A stretch of 64,000 nucleotides of DNA from Clostridia bacterium (GCA_044426345.1 JAWXUP010000002.1:32017-96016); one strand, 5' to 3'. Numbered from the stretch's first letter, positions 9,911 to 48,525 are shown. Notes: generated by a model from the sequence alone, not told the origin. Program-made: numbers and translations.

Positions 9911-11200
9911 CTAAATAATATGTCCTAAATCTATTAGATTTCCATTCTCATCGAAAGGTAAATCCATAAGTTCTGAATCTAAAACTAGATTTTCATTTGC
10001 ATTAATTTCATCTAAATATTGATACGACATATAAATCGTTCCGACTTCTAGAGAATTAGCGATACGAATTAAACGAGGTTCATCGCCTTCATATCCGGTG
10101 CAAGTACGTAAACAAGCTTGGATTGCTTGCTTATCGCTTTTCATAACCATAGGAATACGCACATTTTCGATAACAGTAGACGTTAATACGTTTGGATAAG
10201 TTTGCTCGAAGTCGATTTTATCAAATAAACGACGAGTTGTAACGTGAGCCATACCAGTACCAGTTGCATTGTGATGACTTTCATCGCTCAAATCTAGCAC
10301 TGCAACACGTTGTGAAATTAATCCACCAGATGCGTATGGAGTTACAAAAGTACCAGTTATGTTAGAGTCCATACCACTACCAGAGAAGTTTTTACCAATT
10401 GTATCACAAACAAGAACTTCGCATTCTGCTGTATGTATTTTAGGTAATAAATCTATAGCCTTTTTTAAATAAATTGGCTCTAAAGTATGTATCTCATCAG
10501 GTTTCATAACAACTAGTTCGTGGGTTCTATCAAAAGCGTTTTCTAAAATCGCAACACCACAAAGTAGTGGAATTGCTTTCATAACTGTTTCGCCGAAAAG
10601 ACGAACGTTTTTAGCCATATTTTGAAAACCTTCTTTATGGCAATGCTCAGCACCGAATTGTTTACCAATACCGATAGCCATCATTTTCATAATTCCACTT
10701 TCAAAAGGCCCTCTAAAGCAAGTGTGAGGTTTTATGCGATTGACAACGATAACGCCATCAGCACCTAATACGTCTTTGCTTGCGAAAACTTCCACGCCTT
10801 CAGCATTTAAGCCTACAGAAACTGTTTCCATACTGCTTTTTATCGGACAACCCATAGATTCTTCGGTGATTTTAAAACCTTCTAGGATTTTGCGTTGACC
10901 TTCAGAAGTAGCGCCACCGTGACTACCCATAGTAGCTGCTAAAAATGGTTTTCCACCTTGTGAATATACGAAATCAACCAGTGTTTTTAAAATCAAAGGC
11001 ATATTTGCAATACCACGACTACCTGCTGTGATAGCAACCGACATACCTTGCTCGATTTTAATATCTTTTTCAGCTAAATTTGCAAGAATAGTGCTTGAAA
11101 TATCCTCGGTTTTGATATATGAATCATCAAAAACTTGACGTACTTTATAAACTTTTGGTACAGGAACGTCTTTTACAAGATTACTTACTACACTGCTCAT
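9911..11200 (-). CDS. LarA N-terminal-like (DUF2088) domain protein
   Basis: Segments MGSHGG and VNRIKPHTCFRGPFESGIMKMMAIGIGK...AEHCH resemble the His/Lys-bearing LarA_N core. ATG 11200 lies 2 nt after the gudD stop; the ORF track offers TTG 11218. The family call is tentative. Confidence 0.5.
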   Translation of the reverse strand: MSSVVSNLVKDVPVPKVYKVRQVFDDSYIKTEDISSTILANLAEKDIKIEQGMSVAITAGSRGIANMPLILKTLVDFVYSQGGKPFLAATMGSHGGATSEGQRKILEGFKITEESMGCPIKSSMETVSVGLNAEGVEVFASKDVLGADGVIVVNRIKPHTCFRGPFESGIMKMMAIGIGKQFGAEHCHKEGFQNMAKNVRLFGETVMKAIPLLCGVAILENAFDRTHELVVMKPDEIHTLEPIYLKKAIDLLPKIHTAECEVLVCDTIGKNFSGSGMDSNITGTFVTPYASGGLISQRVAVLDLSDESHHNATGTGMAHVTTRRLFDKIDFEQTYPNVLTSTVIENVRIPMVMKSDKQAIQACLRTCTGYEGDEPRLIRIANSLEVGTIYMSYQYLDEINANENLVLDSELMDLPFDENGNLIDLGHII

Positions 11201-42009: not shown

Positions 42010-43707
42010 TTATTCTTCATCTTGAAGAGCATCGTAATCTTCTTCGCCTGTTCTGATTTTTACAACATTTGTAATGTCATATACGAAGATTTTACCGTCG
42101 CCGATTTTACCAGTATATAAAGATTTTTTGATAGTTGTAACGATTGTATCAAGAGGTATTTTAGCGATAACAATTTCAACTTTAACTTTTGGTTGCAATA
42201 CAGTTTCAACAGATGTACCACGATATGTAGAAGTAGAACCTTTTTGCATACCATAACCTAAAACTTGAGTAACTGTCATACCAGTGATACCGATGGCATC
42301 AAGAGCATTTTTAAGTTTTTCAAATTTTTCTTGTTTAGTAACAACAACGATTTTACGCATTTGAGCATCTGGGTGAGATTTATTTGAAACTGGAATAGCA
42401 ACTTCAGAAGGAATTTGAATTTCTTCTTCAACCATTGCTGATGTTGAACCTAAGTTCATAGGGATTGGCATAAAGTCTGCGTATGAAGTAGCAAGACCGT
42501 GTTCTGTAGAGTCAAGACCAAGAACTTCTTCTTCAGCTGTAACACGTAAGCCGTGGAATTTTTTGATGCAGTAGAAAGCGATAGAAATTGTAACAACTGT
42601 CCATGCAACAACTGCACAGATACCGATTAATTGAATCACGAATAAGCTAATACCACCACCGTAGAATAAACCACCGTCAACAGCGAATAGACCTACTGCA
42701 AGTGTACCCCAGATACCGTTTACACCGTGAACTGCGATAGCACCAACTGGATCATCGATTTTTAGTTTGATGTCGATAAATTCAACAGCAACAACAACTA
42801 AGATACCAGCAACTAAACCAACCATTAAAGCACCGAAAGCATCTAAAGTAGCACAACCTGCTGTGATACCAACAAGACCGGCAAGAGAAGCATTTAGTGT
42901 CATAGAAACGTCTGGTTTACCATTTTTAATCCAAGTGAAAGCCATAGTAGTAACTGATGCAACAGCAGGAGCTACTGTAGTAGTTAAGAAAATAGAACCT
43001 AAACCGCCAACGCCTTCTAAAGCAGTTGCAGCAGCGCCATTAAATCCATACCAACCAAACCAAAGAATGAATACACCAAGAGCACCTAAAGTTAAGTTAT
43101 GTCCTGGGAAAGCTTTAACTTCAACTTCGCCAGTTTTAGGATTTTTAACATATTTACCAATACGAGGTCCTAAGAATAATACGCCGATTAAAGCTGATAC
43201 ACCACCAACTGTGTGGATTGCTGCCGAACCTGCAAAGTCGATAAAGCCCATTTGACATAACCAACCTTCAGCATTCCAAATCCAACCAGCTTCGATTGGG
43301 TAGATAACAGCACTTAAAATACCACTGTAGAATAAGTATGCACTAAATTTAGTACGTTCTGCCATAGCACCTGAAACGATTGTTGCAGTTGTAGCACAGA
43401 ATACTAAGTTAAATACGAAAGAAGACCAAGGGAAATTTGCGTAGTCAGAGAAGATATTCAAGTTTGGCATACCGATGATACCCATGATATAATCTTCGCT
43501 CATCATAATTGTAAAACCTATGAATGTGAACATTACTGTACCTAAACAGAAGTCCATAAGGTTTTTCATAATGATATTACCTGCGTTTTTTGCTCTTGTA
43601 AAACCAGTTTCAACCATTGCGAAACCAGCTTGCATAAAGAATACTAGTGCGGCACCTATAAGGAACCATACACCATATAATTCTGACATTACTGATGCTG
43701 CGTCCAT
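42010..43707 (-). CDS. amt: Ammonium transporter (Amt) fused to a C-terminal P-II (GlnB/GlnK-like) domain
   Basis: Amt core ([22 protein letters not shown]). Residues about 450-565 read [13 protein letters not shown]...[14 protein letters not shown]...GDGKIFV, a complete P-II fold (nt 42013-42360). Confidence 0.9.
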
Positions 43708-43758
43708 AATAATTTCCTCCTAAGAAAAATGTTAATTTAGTTATCAATTTGCGAATAC

Positions 43759-43783
43759 AAATTATTTCCTCATCAAATAATTT
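43759..43783 (-). promoter_or_regulatory. Hairpin 2 of a twin-hairpin RNA element upstream of amt
   Basis: Minus strand reads AAATTATT-TGATGAGGA-AATAATTT. Its loop is identical to that of the hairpin at 43809-43834. Confidence 0.5.
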
Positions 43784-43787
43784 ATAT

Positions 43788-43848
43788 CAGAAAAGGGTGT
43801 ATCTAAAGACTATAATTCCTCATCAAATTATAGTTTTAAATACACCCC
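43788..43848 (-). terminator. glnN terminator / intercistronic attenuator before amt; its apex is twin hairpin 1
   Basis: Minus strand reads GGGTGTAT..ACTATAATT-TGATGAGG-AATTATAGT..ATACACCC followed by TTTTCT. I see no promoter between it and amt. Confidence 0.65.
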
Positions 43849-43880: not shown

Positions 43881-45968
43881 TTAGTTTACGCTGTAAAGGA
43901 TTTCTGCGTATGTAGGTAAGCTCCAGTGTTTTTTAGGAACCATCATTTCAAGTTTATCAACTTCTGCACGAACTTCTGTAGTTAACATATAAACTGTGTG
44001 ACGGAAGTACTCTGCAAGTTCTAAAGTTTCTTCGATGTCACCAGCAGCAACAACAGCAGATTCAAGTTCTTCAAGTTTAGCATACATAGCAGTTGTAGTA
44101 GCTGAAACTTCTGTAGCTAAAGATATATCTAAATCAGCGTTGATACCAGCAGCTTTTTTACCAGCGATTAAGCCAAGTAATTCAGCTTGGTAAGACATAG
44201 ATGAAGGAGAGATTTCTTTTTTAACAAGGTCGATTAGCGTTAAAGCTTCGATGTTGATAGTTTTTAAGTATCCTTCAAGCATGATTTCACAACGAGAGTG
44301 AACTTCAGCTGCGGTGAAAACGTGGTGTTTCTCAAATACTGCAACATTTTTTGGAAGGATAAATGTTGGTAATGCATCAACTGTAGTTTTGAGGTTAAGA
44401 AGACCACGTTTTTCAGCTTCAATAACCCACTCATCTGAATAGTTATTACCGTTGAAAATAATTTGTTTGTTTTCTTTGATTGTTTTACGAACAAGTACTT
44501 TTAAAGCAGCTTCGAAATCTTCTGCAACTTCTAATTCGTCAGCAAAGATATTTAAAACTTCAGCAACGATTGTGTTTAAGATAATGTTTGGACCAGAAAT
44601 TGAGAAAGTAGAACCTAACATACGGAATTCAAATTTGTTACCAGTGAAAGCGAATGGAGAAGTTCTGTTACGGTCTGTAGTATCTTTAGGGAAGTGTGGA
44701 AGAACAGTAGAGCCAAGTTCCATTTGCATACGTGCAATATCTTGGTATTCAGCGTCTGCTTCTAAAGCGTCGATGATTTGTGCAAGTTCGTCACCTAAGA
44801 ACATAGATACGATTGCAGGAGGTGCTTCGTTAGCGCCTAGACGGTGGTCATTACCAGCGTTTGCAACAGATAAACGAAGTAAATCTTGATATTCGTTTAC
44901 AGCTTTGATAACTGCAACTAAGAATAACACGAATTGAGCATTTTCGTAAGGAGTTTCACCTGGTTCTAAAAGGTTTAAACCAGTGTCTGTAGAAAGTGAC
45001 CAGTTGTTATGTTTACCAGAACCGTTAACACCAGCGAATGGTTTTTCGTGAAGTAAGCAAGCTAAACCGTGACGGTCTGCAACTGATTTCATAAGTTCCA
45101 TTGTAAGTTGGTTGTGGTCTGTAGCGATATTTGTAGTAGTGAAGATTGGAGCAAGCTCGTGTTGAGCAGGAGCAACTTCGTTATGTTTTGTTTTAGCTAG
45201 GATACCAAGTTTCCAAAGTTCAGCGTCTAAATCTTTCATATAAGCTGAAACTCTAGATTTTAAAGTACCGAAGTAGTGATCGTCTAGTTCTTGACCTTTT
45301 GGAGGGCGAGCACCGAATAATGTTCTACCTGTGTACATAAGGTCAGGACGAGCTAACCACATTTCTTTATCAATTAAGAAATATTCTTGTTCTGGGCCTA
45401 CTGTAGAGTTTACTTTAGTAGCTGTAGTGTTACCGAATAAACGTAAAATTCTAAGTGCTTGAGTATTTACAGCGTCCATAGAACGAAGAAGTGGAGTTTT
45501 TTTGTCAAGTGCTTCACCAGAATATGAGCAGAAAGCAGTTGGGATACATAAAGTACCATCTTTAATGAAAGCGTAAGAAGTAGTGTCCCAAACTGTGTAA
45601 CCACGAGCTTCGAAAGTACTTCTAATACCACCATTTGGGAAAGAAGATGCATCAGGTTCGCCTCTTACAAGTTCTTTACCAGAGAATTCCATCATAATGT
45701 TGCCATCGTTAGTTGGAGAGATAAAGCTATCGTGTTTTTCAGCAGTGATACCTGTCATTGGTTGGAACCAGTGAGTAAAGTGAGTAGCACCTTTTTCGAT
45801 TGCCCAGTCTTTCATAGCTGCTGCAACAACGTCAGCGATGTCAGCTTCAAGATATGTACCTTGTGCGATTGATCTTTTTAGAGATTTGTAAGCGTCTTTT
45901 GGTAATTTGTTTTTCATTACTGTGTCATTGAAAACCATGCTACCAAATAATTCAGGAATTTGTTTCAT
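43881..45968 (-). CDS. glnN: Glutamine synthetase type III
   Basis: 695 aa; the N-terminus [15 protein letters not shown]...[12 protein letters not shown] is characteristic of GSIII. Confidence 0.9.
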
Positions 45969-46070: not shown

Positions 46071-46110
46071 AAAAAAGGGGTTGCGAACCGTACTACAGTT
46101 CACAACGCCC
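46071..46110 (-). terminator. Leader terminator about 10 nt after the predicted glnN transcription start
   Basis: Minus strand reads GGGCGTTGTGAAC-TGTAGTAC-GGTTCGCAACCCC followed by TTTTTT. Confidence 0.6.
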
Positions 46111-46127
46111 TTGTTGTTTATGTATGT

Positions 46128-46156
46128 ATTATATGATATGCAAGATGTTTTGTCAA
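46128..46156 (-). promoter_or_regulatory. Consensus sigma-A promoter of glnN
   Basis: Minus strand reads TTGACA-17 nt-TATAAT. Confidence 0.7.
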
Positions 46157-46444: not shown

Positions 46445-46473
46445 TTGACAAAAAAACTAAAATATTGTATAAT
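46445..46473 (+). promoter_or_regulatory. Consensus sigma-A promoter of glnA
   Basis: TTGACA-17 nt-TATAAT. Confidence 0.7.
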
Positions 46474-46480
46474 ATTTTAG

Positions 46481-46591
46481 TGAACAAAGGCGTTCATCAA
46501 ATAATGTAAGGTACGTTAAAAAAAACGATTTTTTTAGGAAAATCGTTTAAAACAGACCATTTTGCAGTGTTTGATGAGCGTCTTTATTATT
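46481..46591 (+). promoter_or_regulatory. Structured glnA 5' leader: two small AAGG-loop hairpins competing with a 14-bp long-range helix plus a U-rich tract
   Basis: P1 TGAAC-AAAGGC-GTTCA (46481-96); P2 AATGT-AAGGT-ACGTT (46503-17). AGGCGTTCATCAAA (46488-501) pairs with TTTGATGAGCGTCT (46570-83), followed by TTATTATT. Confidence 0.45.
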
Positions 46592-46604
46592 AAGGAGGGA
46601 AAAA

Positions 46605-47943: not shown

Positions 47944-48525
47944 GTGGTAGTTTTTTTGGATAGTGCTTTAATTGTATCTAGTTCAGATAAAGGTAACGAC
48001 TTTTTTGTAAGTATGCTACGCCAGATTTTTTGTTCAAAAGTTACCACTGTAAAAACTTGTGGGGAAACAAGGCGTTTTATGATGGAACGTGACTTTGATT
48101 TGTATATTATAAATAGCCCTCTTACAGATGAAACAGGTGAAAATTTATCCATTCATATTGCTACTAGAAGTAGTAGTCAAGTTATTTTGGTGGTTAAAGC
48201 CGAACTTTATGATGTTATTTCGTCAAAAGTCGAAGATTATGGAGTTATTACAATAGCAAAACCGATTAATAGACATATGTTTTGGACGGCCTTAAAACTT
48301 GCTAAAGCATCTGGAAATAGATTGAAAATGTTGAAATCGGAAAACACAAAACTTACAAAAAAAATAGACGATATAAAAATAGTTGATAGAGCAAAATATT
48401 TACTTATATCATATTTAAATATGACAGAACCACAAGCTCATAAATATATCGAAAAACAAGCGATGGACTTGCGTGTTTCAAAACGAAAAATCGCAGAAAA
48501 AATACTCAGAACGTATGAAAATTAA
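47944..48525 (+). CDS. ANTAR-domain RNA-binding regulator with a non-phosphorylatable (pseudo) receiver domain
   Basis: C-terminal ANTAR motif VDRAKYLLISYLNMTEPQAHKYIEKQAMDLRVSKRKIAEKI. The receiver has SSS for the acidic pair and IIN for the phospho-Asp, with K-P retained. The start is uncertain (GTG 47944 or TTG 47956). Confidence 0.8.
   Translation: MVVFLDSALIVSSSDKGNDFFVSMLRQIFCSKVTTVKTCGETRRFMMERDFDLYIINSPLTDETGENLSIHIATRSSSQVILVVKAELYDVISSKVEDYGVITIAKPINRHMFWTALKLAKASGNRLKMLKSENTKLTKKIDDIKIVDRAKYLLISYLNMTEPQAHKYIEKQAMDLRVSKRKIAEKILRTYEN

Follow-up and report, generated by a model that had tools for sequence, protein, structure and literature searches.

In the attenuators at eutP, nasF, and amiE, on which the ANTAR-domain proteins EutV, NasR, and AmiR act, a short hairpin (P1) excludes an intrinsic terminator in front of nitrogen genes. 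Its hexaloop begins with A (A1) and has G as the fourth base (G4), and its closing pair is conserved in sequence. ANTAR RNAs were predicted in 2012 before PII, ammonium transporter, glutamine and glutamate synthase, and nitrogenase genes (PMC3369931), and were defined by two hairpins, the second hexaloop hairpin lying at 5-12 nucleotides in the eut leaders (Ramesh et al. 2012, PMC3369931). The later structure of EutV with RNA reduced the minimal ANTAR site to one hexaloop, with G4 as its sole base-specific contact (Walshe et al. 2022, PMC8934654), and lengthening the eut linker by 20 nucleotides abolished antitermination (PMC8934654). Here I describe the spacer between glnN, encoding a type III glutamine synthetase, and an amt-PII fusion gene in a Clostridia bacterium (GCA_044426345.1, JAWXUP010000002.1:32017-96016). 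Coordinates are positions in the whole 64,000-nucleotide stretch of DNA analysed, hereafter the window, and the spacer RNA is read on the minus strand. The spacer contains a P1-like hairpin adjoining the glnN terminator, and two further hairpins, A and B, with identical loops.

The locus shares with the EutV, NasR, and AmiR attenuators the short P1 with its A1/G4 hexaloop and conserved closing pair, the exclusion of an intrinsic terminator, the position before nitrogen genes, and an ANTAR protein encoded in the genome. Unlike in those systems, a single canonical hexaloop hairpin is present, which itself overlaps the terminator, with no separate recruitment hairpin, and the site is found in a spacer between genes and not in a 5′ leader. 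Another similar system is that of NitR, reportedly an ANTAR-type regulator whose gene follows glnA in Clostridium saccharobutylicum (Woods, Reid and co-workers). There, too, glnA is said to be directly followed by the gene of a small AmiR/NasR-like protein, and nitrogen-assimilation genes to have leader terminators. In contrast, the present case concerns an uncultured Clostridia genus, is known from sequence alone, and has a putative regulon that includes glnN, amt-PII, and nif. The reading I prefer, with moderate confidence, is that the glnN-amt spacer is an ANTAR-type attenuator and that the twin hairpins A and B are a lineage-specific addition and not the sensor.

P1 and the glnN terminator

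The glnN gene (43881..45968, minus strand; 695 amino acids; Pfam GSIII_N, 8.7e-82, and Gln-synt_C-ter, 2e-42) is the upstream gene of the minus-strand unit. The amt-PII gene (42010..43707, minus strand; 565 amino acids) carries Ammonium_transp (4.8e-117) and P-II (7.1e-24) domains in a single open reading frame (ORF). In the 173-nucleotide spacer RNA, a small lineage-specific hairpin just past the glnN stop codon is followed by P1, the terminator, UUUU, hairpin B, about 35 nucleotides, the ribosome-binding site (RBS), and the ATG. The RBS GGAGG (43720-43716) and the start codon (43707-43705), together at 43705..43720 on the minus strand, are orthologous to those of G001. G001 (hereafter the sister species) and G002 are the other two species of the genus; the present genome, G000, measures 2.95 Mb and is 99% complete.

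The intrinsic terminator of glnN (43791..43848, minus strand) consists of GGGGUGUAU...AUACACCC (43848-43795) and UUUU (43794-43791). It has the G+C-rich stem of an intrinsic terminator followed by UUUUCU, although the U-tract is short, and it is absent from the list of a simple terminator scan of the window. The first-pass annotation of this stretch had drawn it as a two-tier hairpin. ViennaRNA, used for all folding energies and structures given here, predicts instead an almost continuous 24-bp helix with one bulge and a minimum free energy of −27.2 kcal/mol.

Immediately 5′ of this helix lies P1 (43842..43855, minus strand), ACAC-AAUGGG-GUGU, whose hexaloop (43851-43846) has A1, A2, and G4 and is closed by a C-G pair. 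A stem of at least 3 bp and a hexaloop with A1 and G4 are what ANTAR targets have, and at 23.6 bits P1 is the best match in the window to R1, a covariance model built from P1. The 3′ half of the P1 loop and the 3′ arm are at the same time the 5′ arm of the terminator. Because the sequence GGGGUGU serves both P1 and the terminator base, the two structures are mutually exclusive. P1 alone is weak, at −3.0 kcal/mol against about −27 kcal/mol for the terminator. With P1 forced, the fold reached only −14.4 kcal/mol instead of −27.6 kcal/mol, and the terminator was unzipped at its G+C base; the A+U helix that remains is predicted to lie eight nucleotides away from the U-tract.

A hexaloop hairpin directly 5′ of the terminator and sharing its arm was found in all five closest genomes. 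The hairpin of the window reads ACAC-AACGGG-GUGU in the sister species and ACAC-AAAGAC-GUGU in G002, while L002 has GCAC-AAAGAC-GUGC and L001 has GCAC-GAAGAG-GUGC; L001 and L002 are the nearest named relatives, uncultured Clostridia with 74-78% Amt identity. The same P1-terminator arrangement occurs in about 15 more glnN-amt spacers, from Oscillospiraceae, Lachnospiraceae (CCAC-GAAGCU-GUGG), Treponema (ACGCAC-AAAGGC-GUGCGU), and others. An alignment of 34 P1 hairpins shows no variation in the closing C-G pair or at A2 and G4 of the loop; the first loop base is A in 28 of them and G in the other 6. The three pairs that follow the closing pair have 5-16 double changes each, and the covariation score was reached in none of 500 shuffles. 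The scan behind this set admitted only RANGNN loops on stems of 4 bp or more, and it prescribed neither the invariant closing pair, nor the placement with respect to terminators, nor the gene contexts.

The amt-PII gene seems to depend on transcription from upstream. The interval between terminator and amt contains only weak promoter-like matches, one of 9/12 (CTGATA-18-AATAAT, 43790-43761, across hairpin B) and one of 10/12 overlapping the start codon; such matches are common in the window (20 found versus 11.5 in shuffles). In relatives, the distance from the terminator to the amt start codon is only 26-77 nucleotides. These two facts suggest that amt-PII has no promoter of its own, in agreement with the first-pass annotation. 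A known RNA family was ruled out for the spacer; an Rfam search at E up to 10 gave only chance-level matches, the best with 14-20 bits against gathering scores of 40-140. Tandem Repeats Finder detected nothing in the spacer.

Taken from the sequences, the predicted structures, the conservation, and the gene contexts, the glnN terminator is very probably ANTAR-controlled. From the anatomy of the spacer and the comparison with relatives I infer read-through, its dependence on nitrogen and the direction of that dependence, and the contact of the ANTAR protein with P1. Transcription from glnN would reach the strong terminator (43848-43791), where the weak 4-bp P1 would compete for the GGGGUGU of the G+C-rich base. 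P1 is too weak to beat the terminator, yet a held P1 blocks its base, so the single ANTAR protein of the genome presumably binds and stabilises P1 under the activating nitrogen condition. The terminator base beside the U-tract could then not form, and the polymerase would continue into amt-PII. Hairpin A is no more than the distal helix of the glnN terminator.

The ANTAR gene and further attenuators

The presumed antiterminator is an ANTAR-domain protein of 193 amino acids encoded directly after glnA (47944..48525, plus strand; Pfam ANTAR, 3.8e-15). As with glnN and amt-PII, its identity had been given correctly by the first-pass annotation and was confirmed by Pfam. The whole genome has exactly one ANTAR domain match. 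Relatives of the protein in the PDB are Rv1626 (4e-12), EutV, AmiR, and NasR. In each of the eight relatives checked, G001 and G002 among them, the ANTAR gene lies on the same contig 4-11 kb from the glnN-amt pair. Thus, the neighbourhood of glnA-ANTAR and glnN-amt-PII is conserved across families.

Both glnN and glnA have a leader attenuator of the same type, and over the window the R1 model found three P1 sites at 21-24 bits. The glnN leader (46071..46156, minus strand; R1 match of 20.9 bits) starts from the promoter TTGACA-17-TATAAT (46156-46128), and its P1, ACAAC-AAGGGC-GUUGU (within 46119-46100), overlaps a terminator (46106-46080 plus a U-tract). This P1 is kept with compensatory changes in both other species of the genus, for example as ACAGC-AAGGGC-GCUGU. 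The glnA leader (46445..46604, plus strand; R1 match of 22.6 bits), with its promoter at 46445-46473, has P1 GUGAAC-AAAGGC-GUUCAU (within 46479-46498) overlapping a long terminator-like helix, and the same arrangement is present in G002. Each of the two P1 units lies a few nucleotides past a perfect 12/12 TTGACA-17-TATAAT promoter, and AACAARGGCGTT occurs only twice in the genome, in these two leaders. Since glnN has its own P1-terminator leader, the expression of amt-PII would need two successive antitermination events. The glnA leader (46478-46604, plus strand) folds as one very long helix of −41.4 kcal/mol (z = −7.6), with a 5′ arm that starts within the P1 loop and a 3′ arm that contains UUUGAUGAG, a 9-mer that is also in the twin loops.

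A genome-wide structural scan was performed for P1 with an overlapping terminator and a U-tract. Most matches were noise or dispersed repeats. Compact P1-terminator units were found directly before the genes of NifH, a divergent ModA-like binding protein, a class III aminotransferase, and a class I/II aminotransferase, and also before those of an M20 peptidase, an HpaB/AbfD-like enzyme, a permease of the Na_H_antiporter family, and a family-5 peptide-binding protein; gene functions played no part in selecting the units. The sites outside the window are C68:47011(-), C68:47474(+), C31:2461(+), C81:446(+), C117:17457(+), C117:18831(+), C121:76566(-), C129:16670(+), C129:5827(+), and C161:118(-). 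In total, at least a dozen attenuators have a hexaloop AA[AUG]G[GA]N closed by C-G, and most of them lie a few nucleotides past a consensus promoter. The units look like a nitrogen regulon of the single-hexaloop ANTAR type, in which both glutamine synthetase leaders and some nine further nitrogen-related operons would be served by P1 with its terminator.

Several repeats were met in the course of these scans. A dispersed repeat of about 90 nucleotides is present outside the window in more than 35 places of the genome (such as C2:20418, C9:51488, C10:89, C18:68502, and C98:107590). It starts with the perfect palindrome GATACTTTGG-GACGTC-CCAAAGTATC and continues with caaaagacgaaatctttttgcgaaaagatttatcaaaatctggggcg; it is often at contig ends and therefore probably breaks the assembly. 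A second dispersed element, TAAGGTT-AAGGTR-AGTTTTG cttttgtgcaatattttttagcttgcc followed by a T-run, occurs in more than 20 places (such as C51:5833, C53:4159, C117:1035, and C120:4969). Within the window, GTGGTC-ACAGGC-GACCAC followed by CCCCTACAA...TTGTAGGGG is found twice on the minus strand, around 34101 and 34292. Its A1/G4 hexaloop arises by chance, and the ANTAR-like look of these units was rejected, as they are part of a dispersed repeat mosaic outside the regulon. A 16-bit match to R1 at 10554-10573 was also dismissed, being within coding sequence and lacking a terminator.

The twin hairpins A and B

Hairpin A (43809..43834, minus strand) is the tip of the glnN terminator, ACUAUAAUUU-GAUGAG-GAAUUAUAGU, with 10 bp and −7.4 kcal/mol. 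Hairpin B (43755..43787, minus strand) lies 3′ of the U-tract, AUAUAAAUUAUUU-GAUGAGG-AAAUAAUUUGUAU, with 13 bp and −9.2 kcal/mol. Instead of the loops of 8-9 nucleotides first described, the effective loops have 6 and 7: GAUGAGG for B in both the minimum free energy and the centroid structures, and the hexaloop GAUGAG for A, provided that a U.G pair closes it. The 13-mer AUUUGAUGAGGAA is identical in A (43828-43816) and B (43778-43766), at a spacing of exactly 50 nucleotides. Outside the 13-mer, the arms of A and B match at only about 5/10 and 4/10 positions, and both remain complementary.

The twin hairpin pair exceeds chance, so that identical loops on differing but complementary stems, the core of the first-pass annotation, were borne out. 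The 186-nucleotide region folds with z = −5.67 (0/200 shuffles fold as well), and the local alignment score of A against B was reached by 5/2000 shuffles. The longest word common to the terminator and the downstream spacer has 13 nucleotides here, compared with 4-7 in 15 relatives with the same gene order.

Is the pair found anywhere else? No other occurrence of TTGATGAGGAA within a hairpin was found in the 2.95-Mb genome. Hairpins with a GATGAG loop and the 11- and 12-mers were sought throughout the genome, and no additional hairpin copy turned up. About 11 other attenuators of the genome have small unrelated tip loops and no hairpin 3′ of the U-tract. The twin motif is also absent from G001, G002, L001, L002, and about 70 further syntenic loci in genomes and metagenomes. 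A search of 400 genomes of the order for TGATGAGGA-N20-50-TGATGAGGA found the pair only here; seven other matches are G+C-rich and coding-like, none lies in a hairpin, and the reversed-pattern control gave 2. In G001 and G002, glnN, the terminator, and amt-PII are all retained, and the spacers measure only about 75-92 nucleotides. The sister species has the same terminator base (GGGGUGUAU...AUACACC), the tip CUGUAA-UGUAUU-UUACAG, and nothing 3′ of the U-tract, and the terminator tip of G002 differs again. Hairpin B sits within a segment of about 60-80 nucleotides that relatives lack. No further strain of the species was retrieved: with the Amt-PII protein as query, identities in metagenomes did not exceed 66%, and a look-up of the exact protein gave no match. 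With nothing conserved that would support a function, the twin hairpins appear to be a single-species oddity.

Two partial resemblances were noted. In a distant human gut metagenome contig (L151), the glnN-amt spacer has P1 ACGC-GAAGAA-GCGU and a terminator tip GUAUC-CGAUGAG-GAUAC containing GAUGAGGA; it is the sole such case among about 17 terminators inspected, and the resemblance is weak. In the present genome (C139:16647-16700), a direct repeat of two GATGAGGGATTTTAAAAG copies lies between two genes, directly before an RBS; it has GATGAGG without a comparable hairpin context.

Proteins that recognise other features of such hairpins were also considered. CsrA, which binds GGA in hairpin loops, was excluded, since the 99%-complete genome has no match to PF02599 while the controls were positive. 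It is extremely unlikely that A and B are DNA operators, two palindromes binding a dimeric nitrogen regulator at an amt promoter. Both are near-perfect inverted repeats and the 9/12 promoter-like match spans B, but it is the asymmetric centre that is conserved and not the arms, as the first-pass annotation had already argued. Moreover, TnrA/GlnR-type half-sites (TGTNA-N7-TNACA) are lacking, the site recurs nowhere in the genome or the relatives, and the relatives have no room for a promoter.

A role in RNA pairing is highly unlikely as well. In one form, a plus-strand spacer RNA would display CCUCAUC loops as anti-Shine-Dalgarno sequences, for which a weak plus-strand promoter-like site (43683-43710), the symmetry of the terminator hairpin, and a U-rich stretch after it on the plus strand could be cited; against it, promoter-like matches are as common here as described above. 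In the other form, B (AUUAUUUGAUGA) would pair with the glnA leader (UCAUCAAAUAAU, 46497-46508) and free or block the glnA attenuator. B is perfectly complementary over 12 nucleotides to the 5′ arm of the glnA terminator, but over all 12-mers and leaders the chance of this is about 0.01 to 0.1, and it is probably a coincidence. The UUUGAUGAG of the glnA leader is, furthermore, the complement of its own P1 3′ arm and differs in G002.

The 13-mer itself gives a hint of its source. It is Shine-Dalgarno-like and resembles the amt ribosome-binding region (AUUUGGAGGAUUAU in the sister species). In a MAFFT alignment, the loop and 3′ arm of hairpin B (AUUUGAUGAGGAAAUAAUUUG) were aligned with the amt RBS region of relatives (sister species, AUUUGGAGGAUUAUUUUAUG), and about 55 nucleotides after the aligned part of B were an insertion specific to this genome. 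Alignment scores were compared with 2000 shuffles each. The true RBS against that of the sister species was matched by 0/2000 (p < 0.0005), as expected for orthologous sites. B against the RBS of this genome gave 54/2000 (p ~ 0.03) and against the sister RBS 192/2000 (p ~ 0.1), while A was not significant against either (513/2000 and 321/2000, respectively). Between hairpin A and its counterpart in the sister species, one compensatory stem change is seen, and in place of the loop UGUAUU hairpin A has UUUGAUGAGGAA, exactly the core that A and B share. The 13-mer most likely arose by local duplication or conversion of the amt RBS region. A plausible history, to be held modestly, is that duplication of the RBS region generated B and that the core was then copied into the terminator tip.

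The same resemblance raises the question of whether ribosomes recognise the loops. The exposed GAGGA might bind the 30S subunit, as a stabiliser, as a standby site, or as the RBS of a 7-codon upstream ORF that opens the amt start region. STAB-SD is a 5′ mRNA stabiliser of Bacillus thuringiensis cryIIIA, a strong and single-stranded GGAGG near the 5′ end, and Shine-Dalgarno-like 5′ stabilisers are established in Bacillus. B resembles STAB-SD in placing a Shine-Dalgarno-like sequence within a 5′ untranslated region at a long distance from the start codon; unlike in STAB-SD, the GAGGA here lies in hairpin loops, with one copy in the tip of a terminator. GAGGAA is found both in the 13-mer and in the true RBS (GGAGGAAAU), and the alignment pairs B with the RBS of relatives. 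The speculative upstream ORF (43737..43760, minus strand; UUG UAU UCG CAA AUU GAU AAC UAA, as read from the sequence) would start at a UUG (43760) six nucleotides past GAGGA, a suitable spacing, and stop after seven codons, 30 nucleotides before the amt ATG. However, this UUG is buried in the stem of B, the match to the Shine-Dalgarno sequence is modest, and nothing is conserved. Copy A lies at the 3′ end of the terminated glnN RNA, where a ribosomal function would be senseless, and no start codon follows it. I regard a ribosomal role as quite improbable.

Twin loops and ANTAR control

In the first-pass annotation, the UGAUGAGG loops were taken as the ANTAR recognition element that controls read-through into amt-PII. 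Read-through under ANTAR control is likely in outline, but it had been assigned to the wrong hairpins, and P1 (43855-43842) had been missed. P1, and not the twin loops, is the conserved and covarying element, so that the argument from loop identity picked the wrong hairpins. The motif of the twin loops neither recurs nor covaries in related genomes, and the reading based on them thus fails the test of conservation that came with it.

Several observations weigh against the preference for P1 with the twin hairpins as a mere addition. The ANTAR gene is present in 12/13 relatives whether or not the spacer has P1, and since it is also found where the glnN-amt spacer lacks P1, their co-occurrence does not discriminate. 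The pairing of the inner four P1 pairs is partly by construction, because the scan demanded a stem. The duplication scenario for the 13-mer is statistically weak (p about 0.03 to 0.1). As many as 12-13 identical loop nucleotides beside arms that differ at about half of their positions are the pattern expected from selection on the loop, while a neutral duplicate should diverge evenly. The twin loops have G4, the only base-specific ANTAR contact known, and differ from AAUGAG-G, the P1 loop before nifH in this genome, in position 1 only.

These last points bear on the possibility that hairpins A and B are themselves ANTAR sites whose bound protein prevents termination or controls read-through, or, in a variant, that P1 and A form a dual-hexaloop pair with B as a third site. 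With a U.G pair closing it, A has a hexaloop with G4, the one base-specific contact in the EutV-RNA structure (PMC8934654), and it starts 7 nucleotides after P1, a linker within the 5-12 nucleotides of the eut leaders (PMC3369931). Position 1 is G in both twin loops, which the P1 loops of relatives tolerate (GAAGCU, GAAGAG); presumed P1 hairpins of other families have it, but 0/13 of this genome do. Save for that position, xAUGAG-G equals the P1 loops of an aminotransferase gene as well as of nifH. The identity of the loops on diverged stems and the GAUGAGGA in the terminator tip of L151 also speak for this possibility.

Nevertheless, A and B fit ANTAR targets poorly. An unfiltered search of the window with R1 reported neither at E up to 10 (below 9.4 bits), compared with 21-24 bits for the P1 sites. 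Where P1 hairpins invariably close with C-G, A closes with U.G and B with U-A, and the next pair is U-A in contrast to the A-U or G-C of P1. B has a 7-nucleotide loop and lies past the U-tract, and A is part of the terminator, so that neither excludes the terminator by forming; binding to A would not oppose termination because A belongs to the terminator. The two loops are 50 nucleotides apart, whereas 20 additional nucleotides in the eut linker abolish antitermination (PMC8934654). Finally, both other species of the genus keep P1 and the terminator without the second loop, and no other attenuator of the genome has a second such hairpin. It is unlikely that the twin loops are the ANTAR sites of this spacer.

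The preferred reading, with P1 as the sensor, leaves the identical loops without an essential role in the termination decision, as I judge it. They may be at most accessory, as near-cognate contacts for the ANTAR protein or ribosomes or as a stabilising hairpin in the 5′ untranslated region, and are most likely lineage-specific by-products. According to what is cited in PMC8934654, the small RNA EutX/Rli55 sequesters EutV via ANTAR-type hairpins. By analogy, A and B as G4-hexaloop hairpins might be near-cognate docking sites, a cis-encoded sponge that tunes but does not trigger; I find this idea improbable. A would be shown on the 3′ end of each terminated glnN transcript and B on the amt 5′ untranslated region, and they may titrate or hand over the ANTAR protein. 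As far as that account goes, EutX/Rli55 would be the only known precedent for binding at A and B, as hexaloop hairpins outside an antiterminator that could hold an ANTAR protein; unlike it, A and B lie in an mRNA spacer, are only near-cognate, and occur in a single species. If true, the sponge would give feedback between the expression of glutamine synthetase III and the whole nitrogen regulon.

The ANTAR antitermination of nitrogen genes, predicted for a broad range of bacteria in 2012, seems to have been little studied in gut Clostridia. Judged by its anatomy, the locus belongs, as an ordinary case, to the ANTAR attenuators already known; it has the single-hexaloop form and is part of what looks like a sizeable nitrogen regulon. 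The identity of the loops hinted at selection yet pointed to the wrong hairpins, while the putative sensor is the adjoining 14-nucleotide hairpin. Its clean single-hexaloop mechanism would fit the 2022 structural redefinition of the minimal ANTAR site. This one genome appears to employ the unit a dozen times or more, also inside an operon between two genes, and the predicted regulon offers a ready list of targets for the glnA-linked ANTAR protein.

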